Source: Chiloscyllium plagiosum
Taxonomy: Eukaryota
Reading direction: 5' to 3'
Assembly: GCF_004010195.1 (NCBI RefSeq)
Contig: NC_057736.1
Span: 45,014,326 to 45,078,325, forward strand
Length of the DNA stretch: 64,000 bases
Position numbers and translations under genes: made by a program. Shown piece after piece: positions 15,528-61,793 of this stretch. The notes beneath the pieces are model-generated. The model searched no databases. It had not been told where the DNA came from and saw only the letters and a program-made list of their open reading frames with translations. Each line of letters opens with the position of its first letter. The stretch's first letter is position 1.

Positions 15528-18127
15528 CCAACACCCCTCCCCTCCCCAAGAAAAGAAATGAACCATCAAAATGAAAGGATGGCTTCATTTTTTAAAGTTC
15601 TTAATCCCATTGCGATGAAAAACATAGGTCATCAATCTAACTTATACTTTCCATATTAATTTCTGCACACATTGGAATCTGTCAAATCTTATCTATGCTT
15701 TTTACTTTGAATCTGCGATAATGCAAATACTATTTCATTTTTACGACCCGCAACATATGCAATTTGTAAATTAAAAGTCTGTAACATAAGACAGCAATGA
15801 AATAGTTTCATTTTCTGTCTTTAAATCTTTCTAAGAATGTAAGAGGTTTGTGGTCCCTGTACACAACTGTCTTCGACACGTTGTTCGTCACATAAACATT
15901 AAAATGTTGTCAGGACAGGACCAAACTCAGTAATTCTGTTTCGATGGTAGAGTATTTTCTCTGGTGGGTGTTAAGTTTCTTTGAAAAGTAGCCAGTTTGC
16001 CATTCAATTTCATTTTCATCTTCCTGTAGCAGTTCAACTCCAACTCCTCTATCGCTAGCATTGATTGCAACTTTGAAGGGTTTCAAAAAATTTGGTGGAG
16101 CTGTGGTTAATACTGCTTGTAAATTCTCAAGTACCTCTTGGCATTGTTCTATCCATCAATATTTTGTGTCCATCTTTTGTATCTCTCTTGGCGGTGTCAC
16201 CATAATGCTGAAGGTAGAATCTCCTTAGTCCCAAAATTCGAAGCACCTCTTCGAGGTTGGTCATGGAAATTCCTTGCTGCCCTTTGTCTTTGCATTCTTT
16301 GGGGTCTACCTGCCTTCGTGAATTCTGTTTTCTTTGAGTTTATTACCAGTTTTGCTTCTTGTAATTGTTCAAAGAACTGCCAACTGTACCATGTGATTTT
16401 TCCATCACTTGCTAAAGATCACTACATCATTCAGATAAACTGCGCAATTTGTTAATCTTGCCACAGCTCTGTTTATGAGACTTTGGAATGTGGCTGGTAC
16501 ATTCTTCATTCCAAAGGGCATCAATTTGTCACAATACTAATATGTCATCCCCATGGGAAAACGTGTGAAATTTAGAGTTTTTAATCTGCCACCTTCTTTA
16601 TTCTATGCCCTCTTCAGATGCTGTTTAACTAACTCATCTATCCAATTTAATCTCTCCCTCGCCTCAAATGCATAATCCAAGTGTGAGATATCTGGTTTCA
16701 GTTCTACCAATTTTTCTTTAATTAATTTCAAAGACCCTCTCACTTCATGTCCGAATATTAACTCAAAGGGAGTAAACTGAGTAGATTCATCTGGGGCATC
16801 TCTAACAATACAAATAGCAAACAATACAAATGGGATACCTTGATCACAATCATTCGGGTAATCCCGACAGTACACTATTAACAGTGTCTTGAGAGTCTAA
16901 TGCCATCTTTCCAAAGCTCCCTGGGTTTCAGGATGGTATGCACTTCGTTTAAAGTGCTGTATACCTAAGCTTTCCATGACTTCCTTGAACAGCTTAGCAA
17001 TAAAATTAGACCCTTGGTCTGACTCAATCTCCCTGGGTAGCCCATACCAGGTAAAGAAAGCTATCAATTCCTCCACCCACCTTTTTGCCTTAATACTCCA
17101 TAATGGAATTGCCTCCTGAAATCCGGTAGACACATCCATTATGGTTAGCAAGTACTGGGATCCCACTTTTAATTTTTGGGAGGGGACCTACAAAATCAAT
17201 CATAACCTACTTGAAACATTCTTAGAATGCGGAAATTGGCAACAAAGCTGCTGGTTTTATTACTGCCAGTGACTTACCTCCATTTGGCACGTATGACGTA
17301 TACGGCAAAATTTAACCACACCCTTGTGCTGTCCAGGCCAGCAAAAGTGCTTTTGTACCTTAGCCTGAGTCTTCCCCCCACCTAGGTGATGACCTCCTGG
17401 TAATTCATATTCTACCCATAATACTTCCTGATTGTATGCTACTGGCAACACAATCTGGTGCACTTCCTCCCATTTCTCCTCTGTACTAATTTGCCAAGGT
17501 CTCCATTGTCTTAAGATTCTATCTTTAAAATAATAACCCACAGGAATGCATTCTGATTCCTCTTGTGAATATGTATCAATATATATATATCCTTTATTGT
17601 CTCGTCTTTCTGTTGTAAGTCCATTCGCCTTTCAGGACTAAACAATTCTGCCTGACCCTCTACCTGTTCAGGTTTTTCATGCACCATTATATCAAAACAG
17701 GGTGTCTGCTTACTGAACCTCAACTCCTATCTCTTTAAATTGTGATTCTTACTGTGACTTATGATAGTGGGATCTTATTACTACACAATCTGGAAAAAAT
17801 CCCTGGTTTTCCTTTGACTTCTCCACAATAAAGAGTGTCACTCCCACATTGGATCCTGCTAAATTGTTCCCAAGAACAAAGTGTATTCCTGGAACTGACA
17901 CTTTATCAATCACTCCCACTGTTACTTCCTCAGTCTTGATTTGGCTCCTCAACCTGATCTTACACAGGGGAGCATCTGTCTGTCTATTCTGCAAATTACC
18001 ACTATCTCAGGTTACATGTCAAAAAGAGTGCAAATACATTCATCTCTTACAATTGGAGACTGATTAGCTCCCGTATCTCTCAAAATTGTGACTTCTTTCC
18101 CTTCTTCCCCTGTTCTTCCTGAGTAAA

Positions 18128-23853: not shown

Positions 23854-24259
23854 TCAATTACCAAAGAAATTTATTGATTGACCCTTTTAACAGTTCTTTC
23901 CAACTCACTCGTAGCAACAATAGTCTTTCATGCCTCCTAAGGGAAGGTTTTAGTGTGTGAAGTTCATCTGTCATGGTGATAAAAATGGCCCTATCAATTC
24001 TAAAACACATTCTGACCCTGGGGTGTTTCCGTATTCCTTGCAATTCTGTATAATTGAAAGTATGACTATTTGATACATTGGAACAATGTAGCTAGCTTGG
24101 CTGATCGTTTGTTTTACTTAAATGAGTAGTCTTTCACTGCCAGTGAACCTTAGCTTTACTACTCAAAACTGTTCTGGATAGACTTACTTCTGAATGCAAA
24201 TAATTAATTAGGCTCAGTGTTTTTGGCTTTCTAATCTCCCTTTTACGAAAAATCCATTT

Positions 24260-24370
24260 GGCATGGTGTTTCGGTGGTTAGAAATGCTGCTTCACAGTAC
24301 CAAGGACCTGGGTTCAATTCCACCTTCGGACGACTGTCTGTGTGTAGTTTGCACGTTCTCCACATATTTC
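24260..24370 (+). mobile_element. HE1/V-SINE-like SINE, 5' part
   Basis: tRNA-like head with GGTTCAATTCC B box; truncated. Confidence 0.75.
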
Positions 24371-24451
24371 CCCATATAGTGTAGGCCAAGAGTTATAGCT
24401 GGGATGAAGGCAATTATGATGCGATGAGGCAAGATTTAGCATGCATAGAAT

Positions 24452-25105
24452 TGCTAAAGTACAGATTTGAGATGGCCCAGCTAATTCCTTATGAACCCAA
24501 CCTGTAAGGCGGTTCGTCCCAGAGATCGTAGTCTTTGGTGGTCTGGAATTAAAAAACTCTTACAGACAGTTTAGTTTAACTTTAATCAGCCCCTTCATTT
24601 ACTAATAGCATCACTGTTACAACATAACATTGACACCTATAAGTCAAGCTAATTGGATTCTATTAATCCAGGAGAGTAGAAATTGCTGTTCTTTCAAGAG
24701 CCCTGGCCAGCTACTCTGTTGTACTATCACAAACAAACTATCTTTACATCACTTTACAAAGGCTGTATTGTCACAAACACAAAAAGTTAACGAAAGTACG
24801 ACATGTTCTGAACTATACAGATAATTGCGAAGGACAATAATTTGGGAGAGAAGTTAATTGATACTGCGTTTTATTCCGCAGTCAGAATTAAATATCCTTT
24901 ATTAATTTCACAAAGGAACAGCCGTGAATGTTATCACTCGTTGTCTTGTTCATACAGGTTTGCTGATGTTAAGGCAAATGTTCTTATTTATCTTATCTTT
25001 CCTGCCATACCATTTTCTAGTATGCAGCAAATGTGTTCTATAATTCATAATTACATTTTAGTCTAAATATTTAAGGACAAACATTTAATGCTGTAAACTT
25101 TCTCA
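24452..25105 (-). repeat. ERV 3' LTR
   Basis: 654 bp; minus strand begins TGAGAAAG right after the PPT; about 90% identical to 31002-31665 by manual count; ATTAAA on the minus strand near 24581-24586. Confidence 0.95.
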
Positions 25106-25118
25106 TTCCATCCTTTTG

Positions 25119-26960
25119 TCATTTCATGACAACTACATGGCTTATACAAGTATAATTAGTCCATTTAATCGAGTCAAGTGCCTCCTCTGGTGAGTCATTA
25201 TCCAGAGGAGCAGAGTCTGAAAGATACTGGATTTCAGCATGGGAATTCAGGCATGGAGGTACAGGAGTAGACAAGGGTCGATTAACCAGATTCCTTTTTG
25301 GCTTAAGCGAAAAGCAATGTACAGTCCATTTTATGCATAAGTGGACAACAATGTATATTCGTAGAATGAGACCAAGGACTATCAGTAAGTCCCCATGATC
25401 CACCCGTACAGCGACCATAGCCAGCAAATAACATTCCATCCACATGAATCAGATGACGGTGTGGCAGGTATCTTTCCTGTGTCTTGATCTACTTTGTTGC
25501 TAACATCTATGTCATCCAAAATGTCCTTTGAGAAATCATCGTTGTAGGTGCAATATTGTGGGCCAAATACTGAGCAAGCGCCTCCTTCTTTCGCAAGGAA
25601 GAAATCTAACACTAGCCGATTTTGAAGCGTCATCATCCGGGTCTCCTGTAACAATTTGTTCACCAGCCTCAGAGTGTGGGCAGTTCAGTTGGCAAATTTT
25701 TCGGTCAAGTGCAAGGTCACTTACCTGATTTAGGGCCATCTTAACACCTCAGCCAGGAATACGATTTCCCAGCAACCTGGAACTCCAGGTTTGTTGATGG
25801 AAGAGGTTGTGTAAATTCCGTTTTATTTTTTTCTCTTTTTTTAGTTCCGTATTGATTCACTTCATCTACTTCAGCTATTTCATGGTGGAGGGTAAAAAGT
25901 GGTAAGGTGTGTACTAGGGCATGACGTCCCTACCACTGTATGGGTAGGCTTTGTTTTCGCATAGCCAATGAAGGTTAAAAGGAGTTTCAAGAGTGCACTT
26001 CTGTGAGTGAATGACTAGTCCACTCAGCAAGAGCTGAATCTTGTAAACAGTGTGTGCTATCAAACATTCAGTTGTCCAAGCATATTAATGGATGGAGAGT
26101 AGGAATACAAGCAGTGTCTTTGGTAATATTTTTACATAGTTTTTGTTTCACTTGCCCCATGTCGTGGGTACCGGAAAGTCTTTCAACGTATCATTCTAAC
26201 AGTGGAACAATGTTAACGTTGAATCCTTTAGGTTTGTTAGTCCACTTCGTACAGCAACGCGCTTCTTCTACCAAATGGGTTTTTTCATCACAAATGAGGG
26301 ATTGCATAAGTGGGTGAGTCCTATTTACACACTGTACATCAGAATGATGGAAGAGTGAGCAGATAACACATGGATCGGGGGTTTAGTTTGAATAAATAAA
26401 CCATTAATAACAGAAGGAGGATTGGGAGTGTAAAGTATTTTTGGTCTTTCTTCATTTTTCCAGCTTATCTTGTTGATTATAGTAGCTACTGAATACAGGA
26501 AACGTGTGAAGGTATTTCTATCAGTGGCGATAGTTCGAATAGGAGAGGATTCCTTTGAGAAAGTATAGGTGGTCAGTCTCATGACAATAGGTGACAGGAT
26601 TTGGTGATTTTGGTACTATGTGCTCAATACTGCAATCTTTATGGTTCATTTTCAGAGGGGAGCAGACAAACATTTCAAAGTTTTCAGTTGAGGGAGCGGA
26701 TGAGATTATAGAATTGTGACTGGCATAGAAGTGCTGACACAATGTGAGTAATTTGAATGAGTTTCAGCTGGGCAGCTGCACTCATGACTTTCAATGACAT
26801 TAGTACAGGTTTCAGTTATACAGTCACATTGGAATTTTTGCCGGTCTAAGATATCTCAGATGAGTTGGTTACATCTGGGAGCATGTACTTTGGTTGGGTT
26901 TTTATCGGATGCATGTATCAGTACTAACACTAAGACTGTGAGGGGGATACAAGCTTGCAA
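25119..26960 (-). pseudogene. env: Gamma-type envelope (SU-TM), frameshifted
   Basis: HWLCENKAY SU motif; basic cleavage site KIKR (25818-25829); immunosuppressive domain LQNRLVLDFFLAKEGGAC followed by CX6(Y)C; hydrophobic TM anchor; tail ends at the PPT. Confidence 0.88.
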
Positions 26961-26984
26961 TGTCCTTTGCAGACCATGTTGAAC

Positions 26985-28060
26985 ATCCTACCTTTACTGC
27001 AGTTTCAGTCGTCAAAAGAACTTGATAAGGACTTTTCCAGCAGGGGCCCAATTTTTCACGGTTAAAGTCTTCAATAGTACGTAGTCACCAGGGTTGATGT
27101 CTTTAAATGTTGGAGCTCTTTCTTCTTCCTTCCTTGGTACTCGATAGGCTTCTTTGACCTGTTGATGATAAGACTGCAATGCTTTGGTTAGCTTAATCAG
27201 ATATCTGTGCATTTCTTCTACCATGACATACACGTCAACAGGGTGTTGGGCAGTTAATGGTGCAGACCAGGGAGTCCTCAGGGACTTTCCATAGATCAGT
27301 TCAGCCACCGAGAATCCCGTCTTATTCTGTGTCATGGTTCTCATATTAAAAAGGGCAATTGGAAATACTTGCAGCCAATTAAGGCCTGTACCTTCTACCA
27401 ATTTGCTTAGTTAATCTTTTAAGGTACATTGGCTCTTTCTACAATTTCTCCTGTTCAGGGATGGTTGGCACAATGGAATTTTTGATTCATATCCAAACTC
27501 TTACATAGTGCCTTGTTTAGTTCCGCACAGAAGTGGGGGCTATTATCAGAAGAGACCATTACTGGCATTCCAAATATGGGTATGATTTCCCTTGGTAGAA
27601 TTTTACAAGTAGTTGTTGATGTGCAGTCAGTACAGGAATAAGTTTCAATCCATTTTCTAAATAGTTCGATTATCACTAAGCAATACTTGTAACAATGACA
27701 TTGAGGTAACTCTATAAAATCTAACTGGACAGTGTCAAAAGGTGCACTTGACAAGGAAGTTTCAGCCGGTGGACACTTTACTCCTTTCCCAGGATTATGC
27801 ATTTGACAAATTAGGCAATTTGCAACTGTTTGTTTTGCTCTTTCTTGCAGGTGGGGATTCCACCAAGTTTGGAGAATTCTGTCCGCCATTCCCTCCTTAC
27901 CTACATGCGTGTGGGTATGAAGATAATCAACTAGAATAGGCAAAAGTGAGTTGGGTAGACATGTCTGTCCTACTGGCGTAACCCAAAGCTTATTGTAACT
28001 ATTTACATAACAACCATGGTCCATCTATTTTTGTTTTTCATCATCAGAGGCGTCCCACCG
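26985..28060 (-). pseudogene. pol: Retroviral integrase
   Basis: HTHTHVG...CLICQ zinc finger; QLDFIEL; SSDNSPHF; HCANHP; GPY/F-like WKSPYQVLLTTETAVKV. Confidence 0.92.
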
Positions 28061-28139
28061 ATTGGTCCGTATTTGCTCTAGGTCAGGCATGGTCGGGTTG
28101 TCAGGAGAAGAAATAGGAGAGCCTCCCTTTCGTTTCCTA

Positions 28140-29020
28140 TTTGTCATTTGAGAAACAATGTCTTTTTGCTCAAAAGCTGATTTCTTAGCAGCCGCATCAG
28201 TGGCATTGTTGCCTTTAGTGACATCGAAAGCATCAGGGCAGTGAGCAGAACATTTGATAATTGCCAGTTGTGAGGGAAGTTGATTAACAACATAGGCAGC
28301 ATTGAGGAGAGGGGATCCTGATAAGGTAAGGAAGCCATGTTGCTGTCAGAGTTGACCAAAATCATGGGCACATCCAAAAGCGTAGTGGGAATCAGTATAG
28401 ATATATGCTGACTTACCTTTAGCAAGTATACAAGCACAGGTGAGAGTAAGGAGCTTGCTGGACGGAACAGGGTAGCTTGACAGAATAAGATTCTATTGTA
28501 TGAACAAAGTGACAATCGCATATCCTGACATGCGTTTGCCCTCTGGAGAAATAGAAGAACTATCGACATAAAGTGTAAAGTCAGGGTTAACAAGAGCCCG
28601 ATCTGTAAGATCAGGATGTGGTTTAGTAACAAGCTCATTTTTGAGAACATAATCATGGGGAGGATCAGGCAATTCAAGAGGTTCTCCCTGCAGAGATATG
28701 GCAAGGTTAATGTTGGAGCAGTATTTATAAGAGAGAAGCCGATTCTGAAGTAATGAAATCTCATAGCGATTGAGACAAACCGTAGTGAGTTGTTGAGTAC
28801 GTTTAGAGATAATCAAGGATGTTGCAGGATGAGAGTTACAGACTTCTACATTTTGATGTCAAGTTATATTAGAGGCAGCCACTACCACAGTATGGATGGC
28901 TGAGAGAATATGGGTGCAGGAAAGCATACTCTGAACAACGGGTCAAGCTTAGTTGAATAAAATGCAACAGGGTGTCAAGTGTAATCATATTGCTGGGCGA
29001 GAACAGCTGTAGCACAGGTG
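28140..29020 (-). pseudogene. pol: RT connection domain plus RNase H
   Basis: CATAVLAQ...HPVAFYSTKLDP, TLYVDSSS, YTDSHYAFG, AIIKCSAH, GNNATDAAAK; no upstream LPQG/YxDD region. Confidence 0.88.
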
Positions 29021-30466
29021 TCAAGGATGAGAAAGGGTTTTGTGCTGTAAAAGGGGCAACCTGCCGAGATCTGTGGAGAGGGCGACCAAGAGGTTGCCAG
29101 TTGCTTCCACTCTGGCATTCAACCAGGGGCTGCTTTGGGAAAGGGCAGTCCTTGGATCAATGTCCTGGTTGATTACAATTGAAACAAACATGTGGTTTTT
29201 GTGGGATGCTCTGGGGTGGAGGAGGCGATGAAGAGTAGTGAGAGGAAGTATAGGGAGTAAGGGCATCATGGACTGTTGGGGAATATACATAGGAGGACCC
29301 CAAGGTTCATTGGGATGTTGTGAATACACGGTACCAGTCCTACTGTCCTGCCATACTGGATGATAGTACGAGGATTCCATTTGATAGCCTGGCTGACCTT
29401 GCAGATGGAAAGGTCTGTTTTGAATCCTGGATTTAGGTTTAGCCCCTGTAGTTTGGGCAAGTTCTGTCTTGACCTTGCCGATGGTAGCCTAACTGGTGTG
29501 ATCCTTTAATTCCTATAAGTAACAAACCTCTCGGCTGAATTGTGCAACCTTGGCATCTTGCCAGTGGATGGTAAGAGTTTTAATAGCTTTCTGTACATGA
29601 TCAGGTAAGACAGTCATACAAAGGGCATTAAATTGGGGTGATCGCCTTAGTGGGTAGTTATAATTACTACAGTAGGTGCCACAGCATTCCTTAAAATGGG
29701 TAAGGAACTCTTCAGCTCCTTCACCCAAGCTGGGTTTACATGTTAAGAGTTCACCCACATCAACTGCATGACGCATTGCTTGATGGAGACAGGTAATAAT
29801 CCAATCTGATCTGTTAGGTTCAGCCTGGTGTCAGACTACAAGCTGGGTATGATTATTACATTGACAAATTTCTAAGAACCTCAGCCCATTTTTCAGGCGA
29901 AAGGGTGTACTTTATGAGGTGAGGTAGGTCTTGGGAGGCTGCATTATAAATGGTCCTATTCCTATTAATGTAATTAACAAATCCCTCAGGTTTCTTTCCA
30001 TAATCTGGAGCCTTATTGATAATGCTTGAGAGTTCATGAGGTTTCCATGGTTGATAAAGATCCACAAATTAGGCTTGTCCCAAATTCAGAGCCTGTGGTT
30101 AGGAACTCTTCTTTTTGGGAAATTTCTCTTTGGCCCTCCCACATCAGGGTGAGTGCAGGGACTGATATTAGGTCCCGAAACTTTGATTGCAATTCTTCAA
30201 TGTCTTTGGGATTTATTAGTATAGGGGCAGTGGAAATCAAAGGAGTCCCTTCAGTGTTCCCTCCACGTTTTAATTTTAATTGACTCCTAGTGCAGTGGGC
30301 TACAGGTTCGTGGTAAGCTGAATCCTTATTTAACTGGAGGAAGGGCATGGGCCTTGGCACGTTCGTCATCAGAATAGAGAAGGGAGTTCAGGCAAATTTT
30401 TGTTTTAGTGTTTTCGCCTTGGCTGCACTGTGGGTGTGATTTGATCTTATCTAGAGTTACACCCAT
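29021..30466 (-). pseudogene. gag: Retroviral gag (frameshifted)
   Basis: Candidate start MGVTLDKIKS; PVAHCTRS; capsid-like YQPWKPHELSSIINKAPD; zinc knuckle CFNCNQPGH*SKDC at 29145-29186. Confidence 0.82.
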
Positions 30467-30633
30467 ATATATCCTACCTACTTTAGATTGTCACAAAACT
30501 ACTGATTTACAGCGGCTCCAACCCCAAAAATAAACACACAACACCGACATAAAACACAACATGTAGTCACCAACGAACAAATGTGCATTCAAACCGAATC
30601 TCAAAGGGTTAAACTTTCTGCAAGCTGTATGGA

Positions 30634-30637
<4 letters not shown>

Positions 30638-30675
<38 letters not shown>

Positions 30676-30703
30676 ACTCACTCACTCACTCACACACTCA
30701 CAC
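30638..30703. repeat. (CT)n(CACT)n microsatellite in ERV leader
   Basis: Directly visible. Confidence 0.95.
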
Positions 30704-30980
30704 ATTTTAGAAGATAACAACCCAACAACGAACAGCAAGACTAATTATTTCTGCAAAGCATTCTCGGCATTCTAAAACCCTTACAGTTTCTGTTTTTAAT
30801 ACCTATTTAAACAATCTCATTTAAGGTTCCGTCAGGGTACTGAGAGAATGAAATGTGGGAAGCCAGATAAAGATGCAGACCGAGAGCAATCAAGGTACCT
30901 TGTAGGCCCATTGGTCTCAAGTCTGACCCTTAAGTGAGGCTCCTCTTTTCCAGTTTCACTCAAACGTATCCTTTGTCGGA

Positions 30981-30998
30981 ACCCTGCTCATAGTGCCA
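30981..30998 (-). promoter_or_regulatory. ERV primer-binding site, tRNA-Ser type
   Basis: Minus strand TGGCACTATGAGCAGGGT, 3 nt after the 5' LTR; resembles vertebrate tRNA-Ser 3'-end complements (TGGCGCTGTGAGCAGGAT, TGGCGCAGCGAGCAGGGT). Confidence 0.8.
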
Positions 30999-31001
30999 AA
31001 T

Positions 31002-31665
31002 TGTTAAAAGTACAGATTTGAGATGGCCCAGGGAATTCCTTATGAACTTAACCTGTAAGCCTTTCTTATGGTTCGTCCCGGAGATTGTACTCTTTAGTGG
31101 TCTGGAATAAAAAAAATTCTTAAAGACAGTTTAGTTAATTTTAATCATCCCCTTCAATTACTAATAGCATTACTGTTACAACATAACATTGATACCTATA
31201 CGTCAAGCTAACTGGATTCTATTAATCCAGAAGAGTAGAAATCGCTCTTCTTTCAAGAGCCCTGGCCAGCTACTCTGTTGTACTATCACAAACAAACTAT
31301 CTTTATATACCACTTTACAAAGGCTGTATTGTCACAAACGCAAAAAGTTAACAAAAGCACTGCATGTTTTGAACTAGACAGATAATAGTGAAGGACAATA
31401 TTTCGGGAGAGAAGTTAATTGATACAGAGTTTTGTTCCACGGTCAGAATTAAACATTGTTTATTAATTTCACAAAGGAATAGCCGTGAATGTTATCACTC
31501 GGTGTCTTGTTCATACAGATTCACTGATGTTAAGGCAAATGTTCTTATTCATTTTATCTTTCCTGCCATACCATTTTCTAGTGTGCAGCAAATGTATTCT
31601 ATAATTCAAAATTACATTTTAGTCTAAATGTTTAAGGACAACATTTGAGGCTATAAACTTTCTCA
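31002..31665 (-). repeat. ERV 5' LTR
   Basis: 664 bp, TG...CA ends, direct repeat of 24452-25105. Confidence 0.95.
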
Positions 31666-33049
31666 GGATGGGAAAGGAAACTGCAAGGGATGGGCACAAT
31701 TGAAACATGGAGCTTGTTCAAGGAACAGCTATTGTGGATCCTTGATAAGTATGTACCTGTCAAGCAGGGAGGAAATGGTTGAGCAAGGGAACTGTGCTTT
31801 ACTAAAGAAGTTGAATCTCTTGTCAAGAGGAAGAAGGAGGCTTATGTAAAGATGAAAGGTGAAGTTAGGGCACTTGAGTGTCACACATTAGCCAGGAAGG
31901 ACCGAAAGAGAGAGCTAAGAAGAACCAAGAGGGGACATGAGAAGTCTTTGGCAGGTAGGATCAAGGAAAGCCCTAAAGCTTTCTATAAGTATGTCAGGAA
32001 TAAAAGTAGTAAGATTAGGGCCTGTCAAGGACAGTAGTGGGAAGTTGTGTGTGGAGTCCGAAGAGTTAGGAGAGAAGCTAAAGTGAATATTTTTTGTCAG
32101 CATTGCCAGAAAAAGACAGTGTTATAGAGGAGAATACCGAAATACAGACTATTAGACTAGATGGGATTGAGGTCCATAAGGAGGAGGTGTTAGCAATTCT
32201 GAAAAGTGTGAAAATAGGTAAATCCCCTGGGGCGGATGGGATTTATTCTAGGATTCTCTGGGAAGCTAGGGAGGAGAATTGTACAGCCTTTGTCTTTGAT
32301 CTTTATGTCGTCATTGTCGACAGGAATAGTGCCAGAACACTGGAGTTTAGCAAATGTTGTTCCTTTGTTCAAGAAGGGGAATATAGACACCCCTGGAAAT
32401 TATAGACTAGTGAGCCTTACTTTGGTTGTGGGTGAAATGTTAGAAAGGATTATAAGAGATAGGATCTATAATCTTCTAGAAAGGAATAATTTGATTAGGA
32501 TAGTCAACACGGTTTTTTGAAGGGTAGGTCATGTCTCACAAAATTGAGTTCTTTGAGAAAATTACCAGACAGTTGGATAAGGGTAAAGCATTTGATGTGG
32601 TGTATATGGATTTCATTAAAGCATATGATAAGATTCCTCGCGGTAGGCTATTGCAGAAAATATGTAGGCATGGGATTGAGGGTAATTTAGCAGTTTGGAT
32701 CTGAAATGGGATTTTGTACACTACATTAGTTATGCTCATGCTGGGTATCGGGTCCTTCGTTTTGGTGAGTTGTTGTCTGAGAGTGGCTGTTGGTTTGTGT
32801 GCTGTTATAAGTCCTAGTGGTCGCAGTAGTCTGGCTGTCATTTCAGAGATGTTCTTGATGTATGGTAGTGTGGCTAGTCATTCGGGTTGCGGCATGTCCT
32901 CCTTCTGTTGTCTCTCCCTTAGGCATCTGTTGATGAAATTGCGAGGATATCCGTTTTTTGCGAATACCTTGTATAGGTGTTCCTCTCCCTCTTTTTGCAG
33001 TTCTGGTGTGCTGCAGTGTGCATTCCTAGACGTGAGGGTACTTTTTGTT

Positions 33050-33089
33050 GCAAACGTTTCGTCCTCTGTCTAGTTGACATCCTCAGTGC
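33050..33089 (-). ncRNA. Minimal hammerhead ribozyme motif
   Basis: GCA-CTGAGGA-TGTCAACT-AGAC-AGAGGAC-GAAACGTT-TGC. Confidence 0.7.
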
Positions 33090-33518
33090 TTGGGAGCCTC
33101 TTGTGAAGCGCTTCTGTGGTGTTTCCTGCGGCATTTATAGTGGCCTGTCCCTGCTGCTTCCGGTTGTTAGTTTCAGCTGTCCGCTGTAGTGGCCGGTATG
33201 TTGGGTCCAGGTCGATGTGTTTGTTGATGGGGTTTGTGGATGAGTGCCATGGTTCTAGGAATTCCCTGGCTGTTCTTTGTTTCGCTTGCCTTTTAATGGT
33301 AGTGTTGTCCCAGTCGAATTCATGTTGCTTGTCGTCAGCGTGGGAATTCCTAGAAGCATGGCACTCATCCACAAACTCCATCAACAAACACATCGACCTG
33401 GACCCAATATACCGGCCACTACAGCGGACATCTGAAACTGACAACCGGAAGCGGCAGGGACAGGCCACTATAAATGCCGGAGGAAACACCACAGAAGCGC
33501 TTCACAGGATGCTTCCAA

Positions 33519-33558
33519 GCACTGAGGATGTCACCTAGACAGGGGACGAAACGTTTGC
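33519..33558 (+). ncRNA. Minimal hammerhead ribozyme motif
   Basis: GCA-CTGAGGA-TGTCACCT-AGAC-AGGGGAC-GAAACGTT-TGC. Confidence 0.78.
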
Positions 33559-34289
33559 AACAAAAACTTCCAGCTCGGCGAACAGAACCACAGCATGGTA
33601 CAAATTCTTAACTGATCTACCTAGACAATCATCCTAAAATTACCCATTTTCCCCAAGCCAGCATTTAAATGTGACAGGCAAAAGATTAGTAGTGGAGGTT
33701 AGATATTAGGTTAAAGATGGAAAGAGAAAAAAAAATAGTAAGCCACATTGTGGATTTAGAGTATTTGAATCTCAGACTAGCAGTTCCAATATCTGAATGT
33801 ACTCAACCCCTCTGAGTAGCTCTATGACAGTTGGGTGATGAAACTTAAGCTTTTGAAAGAGTTACTGAGTTGGATTGTTTCCTTCATCTGGGCAGTCTCG
33901 TCATGATACACTAATAATTAGACACTCATGATACGGTTCCTCACTGAAAACAGTCTTTCAATTCAACCTATACTGCTCCACTCACTGTTATGTGTTCTTT
34001 GCTTCAAGCAGTGTCCCTGTGGTTCCTTACCAAGCAGGTATTCACAATGTGTCTCCTGTCGAGGAGCAATGCTTCCTTGGATCTTACTGCTCAAGCTGTA
34101 GCCATTGACTAAACACACAGGATTGCGGAGTTTGGCTTTACAACTCCAACCCCTCAATTTCCCCTCCAGATTGTAACTTTTCTTCATTGGTCATGTTTGC
34201 ACCTGTTGTGATATCAGAGGGTTATATTCCCTCTCAGCTTTGTTTGGTGTTGTGCAGCATGGGTGTGACTGATCACGGACAGTCCTCAA

Positions 34290-60833: not shown

Positions 60834-61793
60834 TCNNNNNNNNNNNNNNNNNNNNNNNNNNNNNNNNNNNNNNNNNNNNNNNNNNNNNNNNNNNNNNNNN
60901 NNNNNNNNNNNNNNNNNNNNNNNNNNNNNNNNNNNNNNNNNNNNNNNNNNNNNNNNNNNNNNNNNNNNNNNNNNNNNNNNNNNNNNNNNNNNNNNNNNNN
61001 NNNNNNNNNNNNNNNNNNNNNNNNNNNNNNNNNNNNNNNNNNNNNNNNNNNNNNNNNNNNNNNNNNNNNNNNNNNNNNNNNNNNNNNNNNNNNNNNNNNN
61101 NNNNNNNNNNNNNNNNNNNNNNNNNNNNNNNNNNNNNNNNNNNNNNNNNNNNNNNNNNNNNNNNNNNNNNNNNNNNNNNNNNNNNNNNNNNNNNNNNNNN
61201 NNNNNNNNNNNNNNNNNNNNNNNNNNNNNNNNNNNNNNNNNNNNNNNNNNNNNNNNNNNNNNNNNNNNNNNNNNNNNNNNNNNNNNNNNNNNNGTGCCAC
61301 AGAACAAGCAGTTGGGCTGGGAGTCCGTGAACCACCGCAACCTGTGGTTGCAGGGGACTGCTGCGTGCAGCACCCTCCACCCCAGATCCCCGAGAGAAAG
61401 GGGGAGGACTCCCGCATAGAGAGCCCTCCACTGGGGATCCCCACCGCCCGGTGGCAAATGGGCACGCCAAGGCCTGTCCGGACGGTGGATGAGGGAGAAG
61501 AGGTGGACGGTGTGCAGCAGCAGTCTACACAGGGCTCTTCTTTTCACCTCCTTAAACGAAACAAAATTAAAATTTCGGAGGCGGCTCAGGTTGTGGGGCA
61601 CAGGCTCCCGCGGGAAGTACGGGACCTTGGGGCCAATGTGAAATTCCGTCCGGGCTGGGGTGAGCGCGGACGGGATCCCACCGCACACCTGCGCGTCCTC
61701 CAACTGGTGCACTGTGTCGGGTCCGAGCACTGCCGTTTTAAGGCGTCGGTTGGCGGTGGCCACGTACCGGACGTCTACCGCTGCCCTGCTGGC
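60794..61793 (-). mobile_element. GC-rich Tx1/L1-clade LINE 3' fragment spanning the gap
   Basis: LGDLGWRVLHAAVPCN...CLFCG (zf-RVT); T-rich tract 60793-60835 is the poly(A) tail; flanking repeat TATGACAC(TC)TGGTTTAT. Confidence 0.82.
60836..61293. other. Assembly gap (458 N)
   Basis: Run of N. Confidence 1.

Follow-up and report, generated by a model that had tools for sequence, protein, structure and literature searches.

A class I provirus of Chiloscyllium plagiosum that passes from the gag zinc knuckle into the reverse transcriptase connection domain: one deleted copy or a deleted subfamily

Complementation in trans is described as a standard route of growth for endogenous retroviruses, or ERVs (PMC8922424). 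The closest described system, IAP 1Δ1 of the mouse, has a 1.9-kb deletion across gag-pol and relies for its movement on gag and pol provided in trans; it is described as a class II, env-less, active element that occurs at many loci and has an in-frame gag-pol fusion (PMC6466679). In the gamma-like canid family CfERV-Fc1(a), common deletions and stops, including a deletion in env at 8 proviruses, are reported as marks of spread by complementation (PMC6407205). Mouse VL30 and ETn are presented as defective ERVs spread by a helper (PMC6466679), and chicken EAV-HP is believed to be helper-dependent (PMC4607243). Epsilon-like ERVs (CmiERVs) are known from the elephant shark (PMC4422223; PMC4977317). 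In a search of titles and abstracts, with supplements and most subscription journals outside it, no shark ERV lineage without protease and reverse transcriptase (RT) was found.

The element described here is a 7.2-kb class I ERV that runs from 31665 to 24452 on the minus strand of a 64-kb window (the whole stretch of Chiloscyllium plagiosum DNA that was analysed). Like IAP 1Δ1 it is a two-LTR ERV with a deletion at the gag-pol border, of about 1.8 kb here and about 1.9 kb in the mouse; unlike IAP 1Δ1 it belongs to class I, has kept env, is dead and out of frame, and has a junction known from one locus. The CfERV-Fc1(a) deletion lies in env, whereas the shark loss lies in pol and at one locus. 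For EAV-HP, VL30 and ETn multicopy helper-dependent spread has been reported, whereas for the shark element it is a hypothesis to be weighed below. The features of the element, in the order of its transcription and with the target site duplication (TSD) at either end, are as follows.

31666..31669, plus strand: right TSD copy; the host LINE open reading frame, presumably of CR1 type, goes on beyond it to about 32700
31002..31665, minus strand: 5' LTR, 664 nt, TG...CA
30981..30998, minus strand: primer binding site (PBS)-like 18-mer with a TGG start, 3 nt past the 5' LTR, recognised from its letters
30467..30980, minus strand: leader, delimited from sequence and containing a (GA)n/(GAGT)n microsatellite at about 30640-30700
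29033..30466, minus strand: gag, broken, with a likely start MG at 30466 and a putative end; tblastn matches to catshark and skate ERV proteins
about 30065-29280, minus strand: capsid-like part, within the broken gag
29186-29145, minus strand: one CCHC knuckle (zf-CCHC, E 4e-7), containing a stop
29016..29061, minus strand: junction zone, with the breakpoint somewhere within; protease, RT fingers, palm and thumb, and the start of the connection are gone
28600..29022, minus strand: remainder of the RT connection, broken (tblastn and Pfam)
28170..28580, minus strand: RNase H, broken (Pfam and solved-structure matches)
26974..27960, minus strand: integrase, broken, with HHCC zinc finger, core and MLV-type C-terminal domain
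25130..26930 (limits approximate), minus strand: gamma-type env, broken, with the immunosuppressive-domain region near 25627-25575
25106..25117, minus strand: polypurine tract (PPT), 11 of 12 purines, adjoining the 3' LTR
24452..25105, minus strand: 3' LTR, 654 nt, TG...CA
24448..24451, plus strand: left TSD copy, with one mismatch to the right copy

The cis signals retained are both LTRs, the PBS-like site, the leader and the PPT. The sequence-only reading had listed LTRs, PPT, PBS and TSD as present; the LTRs and the PPT stand, the TSD stands with 3 of its 4 letters matching between the copies, and the PBS is only PBS-like, an 18-mer that we take to resemble the 3' end of tRNA-Ser. The element interrupts a LINE-like open reading frame, which from its translation we take to be a CR1-type LINE (it has no Pfam match), and the two flanks are in frame when one 4-bp copy is counted, so the imperfect TSD is considered real. 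Three DNA sequencing runs have loose ends just behind 24448 that look, by eye, like the right flank. The LTRs are identical at 594 of 651 aligned columns, with 36 transitions and 21 transversions (K2P 0.094). At 1e-9 per year this divergence would date the insertion to about 47 Myr, and at the rate that PMC4422223 assumes, to about 210 Myr; for its age "old" alone is safe.

Several other features lie in or near the flanks. The parts of the host LINE reading frame that flank the provirus are at 24360-24451 and 31666-32700 on the plus strand, and just left of the provirus, near 24255-24340, is a copy of a tRNA-derived SINE. At 33037-33571, adjoining a LINE fragment, there is an inverted repeat with arms of 236 nt that are 93% complementary and a spacer of 63 nt. 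A second, unrelated degraded integrase core, 31-33% identical to ERV proteins, is found at 16738-17163 on the minus strand.

The two TG...CA LTRs, the PPT, the 4-bp TSD, the single CCHC knuckle, the MLV-type RNase H and integrase C-terminal domain, and the gamma-type env transmembrane subunit (TM) with its immunosuppressive domain are all marks of class I. The best solved-structure matches of the RNase H are the RNase H of MLV and XMRV, and the env TM matches filovirus GP2 (E 2e-10) and, more weakly, syncytin-1 and MLV p15E (E 0.004-0.02). In the RNase H-integrase tree that the sequence-only reading had proposed, and that stands in for an RT tree because the element has no RT, the element groups with seven ERV proteins of cartilaginous fish (sawshark, horn shark and skate) with support of 100/99; the tree has 36 rows, namely the window and those 35 of 156 hits that cover at least 330 query residues, and as neither an epsilon nor a gamma anchor is named in it, a grouping with ERVs of cartilaginous fish is all that it gives. 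The nearest RNase H-integrase relatives, at 40-43% identity, are proteins of Leucoraja (P0005, P0155, P0157, P0158), Heterodontus (P0006), Pristiophorus (P0003, P0011) and Scyliorhinus (P0002), and the gag of the element is likewise homologous to that of cartilaginous-fish ERVs. The best of the 150 listed relatives, at 42% identity, is the 1,225-residue skate protein P0005, which has protease, RT, connection, RNase H and integrase, and three of the seven tree partners have the protease active site; the skate ERV proteins hold both protease and RT, whereas the element is without them. The element is a class I ERV that, to judge from these homologies, descends from viruses with complete pol. In P0005 an extra segment with two HxT-like motifs (seen by eye) lies between protease and RT, at residues of about 125-255. 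No protein of the element's own family was found, as none of the 174 proteins with a match reaches 50% identity over at least 60 residues; the protein searches returned two longer and two near-length matches and 150 listed representatives, none of this family.

The absence of protease and RT was borne out by a six-frame Pfam search of 25100-31004, in which zf-CCHC, RNase_H, Integrase_H2C2, rve and MLVIN_C were matched and neither RVP nor RVT_1 appeared at E up to 1, and the protease-RT parts of six related pol proteins matched nothing in the whole 64-kb window at E<0.01. The knuckle had been said to run into the RT connection after about 125 nt, and the distance found is 122 nt (29145 to 29022). 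At 29022 a weak Pfam match to RT_RNaseH_2 (E 0.036) begins at profile position 39 of 100, and tblastn with P0005 supports the same connection segment. P0005 aligns to the window solely from residue 593-609 onward (the start of the Pfam match is at about residue 609), and therefore about 600 codons, or about 1.8 kb, are absent. The letters from 29061 to 29022 were considered as either a remnant of the protease N terminus or the start of the connection domain. The element contains no N letters, the sole N run of the window being at 60836-61293, and the protease-RT gap is confirmed as a real structure of the provirus.

The reading given about an even chance is that one deletion in this copy of a dead class I provirus removed protease and RT, and the indirect evidence leans slightly toward it, the alternative named in the sequence-only reading, over the helper-dependent lineage that the same reading had raised. 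The parent virus would have had a complete pol. Either a complete provirus would have inserted into the host LINE, where the 4-bp duplication is seen, and lost about 1.8 kb in one event later in the germline, or the deletion would have come about by template switching in the reverse transcription that founded this copy. The junction would then exist at this locus only, with RNase H, integrase and env kept for no other reason than their position outside the deletion. In favour of a one-copy deletion, the nearest long-pol relatives have protease and RT, siblings in the same family show many different deletions, and the connection remnant and the zinc knuckle of gag stand in different frames today, with no in-frame gag-pol fusion to be read. 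From the LTR indel rate about 0.6 indels are expected in the 122 nt since insertion, and a post-insertion indel could account for the frame offset. Against a one-copy deletion, the break falls neatly at about the end of gag, and two further points, the stop counts and the high-depth contigs, are taken up below.

Part of the stretch is contained in 20 sequencing runs of 8 studies and three organisms (A, B and C), none of which contains half or more of it, and four of the 24 listed runs (three DNA, one RNA) were compared with 24345-30620 at 80% likeness. The three DNA runs gave 2,741, 2,543 and 3,553 contigs, with all 30 bins covered. In run X1 of organism A the 25 internal bins have a median summed depth of 1,074 (counted by hand), which is no copy number, and two pieces 99% identical to the window have depths of 18-21; the family is multicopy, with roughly tens of copies. 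Among the siblings listed most differ from this copy by 10-16%. Contigs of depth 533-662 also occur in run X1, one of which, listed as a piece, differs by about 10% from this copy, and organism A seems to carry a near-identical, probably younger subset of the family; this depth class is absent from what is listed for organisms B and C.

Internal deletions are common in the family. There are 246 joints, and most of the 15 listed are near single-copy depth; a further table shows skips from gag to integrase with differing ends, 27614 to 29261 in organism A, and 27592 to 29262 and 27484 to 29043 in organism C. The first two of these (runs X1 and X20) are nearly the same deletion, found close to single-copy depth in each of two organisms, and probably represent one older locus common by descent. 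The organism C contig that passes from gag (29043) to integrase (27484) does so through 21 other letters, whose minus-strand translation LICRLL resembles GRDLLCRL, a motif at the protease end of skate relatives; such a motif is found there in 6 of the 22 relatives that have a protease active site, including the three skate proteins, and nothing of the LICRLL type occurs in the three minus frames of the window. The resemblance, noticed post hoc in one contig and equalled in its match to the missing part of P0005 by 2 of 400 random 21-mers, suggests that the family once had a protease. A family with protease is predicted both by a one-copy deletion and by the reading considered next, because a deleted subfamily needs a helper.

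In that second reading, which is a serious possibility and somewhat the less probable, a single deletion event in an active copy founded a non-autonomous subfamily that was copied by the Gag-Pol of full-length siblings, its genes being passengers; RNA with LTRs, PBS, leader and PPT would have been packaged, reverse transcribed and integrated in trans, as in IAP 1Δ1. All of the cis elements that this would take are present, and the spread of common defects by complementation has been described for IAP 1Δ1 (PMC6466679) and canid ERV-Fc (PMC6407205). Near-identical subsets exist within this multicopy family, and one skip near the end of gag is of high depth. This is a joint in run X1 from 29103 to 29261, of depth 433, that skips the knuckle region, the letters between being not known; a joint of depth 88 in run X13, from 29068 to 29285, has the zinc-knuckle region skipped or replaced. 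Such skips may be a common lesion amplified in a subset of the family, and together with the high-depth contigs they count against a one-copy deletion, as common lesions may have been amplified. Two joints, one in run X1 with a side of 70 and one in run X13 with a side of 36, would both end at 29033-29034 provided that their short side is the lower; this would hint at a fork where gag ends, which is expected under both readings.

A second copy with the junction, as a trans-copied subfamily would provide, was found neither in proteins nor in viral or metagenome contigs nor in the listed contig pieces, and all of these are weak negatives. No protein of 80-258 residues is a candidate for the junction peptide. 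The integrase query confirmed no sibling locus in viral and metagenome contigs, and a degenerate connection-motif pattern had 0 matches there; these collections are not shark genomes and carry little weight. None of the 24 contig pieces listed (of 9,124) bridges the junction, a list too thin to count, and none of the 24 loose ends listed (of 2,002) lies at it, most being in the high-depth flank, LTR and leader bins and thus uninformative. The depths of the junction bin (1074, 284 and 1121) are like those of neighbouring bins, joined and unjoined forms being indistinguishable by depth. Also against a trans-copied subfamily, the siblings carry other deletions than this one, and no fusion of the kind that IAP 1Δ1 has in frame is readable today.

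The decay of the retained genes bears on all of these readings. The sequence-only reading had called gag, RNase H, integrase and env present, and all four were found, yet every one is broken by stops and frameshifts. Of the 505 codons of the RNase H-integrase frame 5 are stops (simulated 2.1, 95% range 0-6), and of the 156 of the capsid frame 3 are (simulated 0.8, range 0-3), in a simulation that takes half of the LTR divergence as input and ignores CpG decay and LTR conversion. Both exceed the simulated mean and come close to the upper limit of the range, together 8 against about 3 expected, and one of the 8 observed stops sits in a locally shifted stretch. Being inside the range, the counts are compatible with decay after insertion; the mild excess could point to decay before insertion, which would favour a trans-copied subfamily and stand against a one-copy deletion. 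By these counts neither the RNase H-integrase nor the capsid frame is better preserved than neutral decay predicts, and since the stops are at or above the neutral expectation the retained genes have decayed no more slowly than neutral DNA would. Transcription of the locus left no sign in the one RNA run sampled, about 2% of which was read: 263 reads fall on the stretch, 3 of them at least 99% alike, and none over 28335-30434.

These results make it very improbable that the element represents a true satellite, a shark class I lineage that lost protease and RT once, at the end of gag, and kept spreading with both enzymes borrowed while its own gag, RNase H, integrase and EGF-bearing env were kept under selection. 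The domain order, the still readable D, D and E motifs of the integrase core and the nearly full-length env agree with such a lineage, but every retained gene is broken, none shows a sign of selection, and what is left of the connection domain is truncated and in another frame than gag. In the Gag-Pol precursor of a helper, protease, RT, RNase H and integrase come joined, and because all four are supplied together there would be little to select for in a satellite's own enzymes. The more curious side feature of the element is the start of env (26709-26855, minus strand), which is cysteine-rich with a weak EGF-like module: all five Pfam families listed for it are of EGF type, the best being EGF_3 (E 0.045) and all falling below the cut-off, and its single solved-structure match is a weak one to fibrillin (E 0.77).

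Least probable of all is an assembly error, in which copies of the family were collapsed and a complete provirus lost its protease and RT. The multicopy state and the want of a bridging piece among those listed could be cited for it, but neither an N nor a repeat pair is present at the junction, two 99%-identical pieces in run X1 flank it, neither bridging it, and collapse is unlikely because of the 10-16% by which most listed siblings differ.

A one-copy deletion and a trans-copied subfamily are both already known kinds of event. Only evidence of selection on the retained genes would surprise specialists, and none was found. If one deletion in this copy is the true history, the element is a case of ordinary ERV decay. 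If the deletion was instead copied in trans, IAP 1Δ1 would have its counterpart in cartilaginous fish; a junction common to several loci would make the element an example of what RT-based ERV screens miss (PMC8922424) and would mean that helper-dependent ERV amplification, as in mice, canids and chickens, extends to cartilaginous fish.
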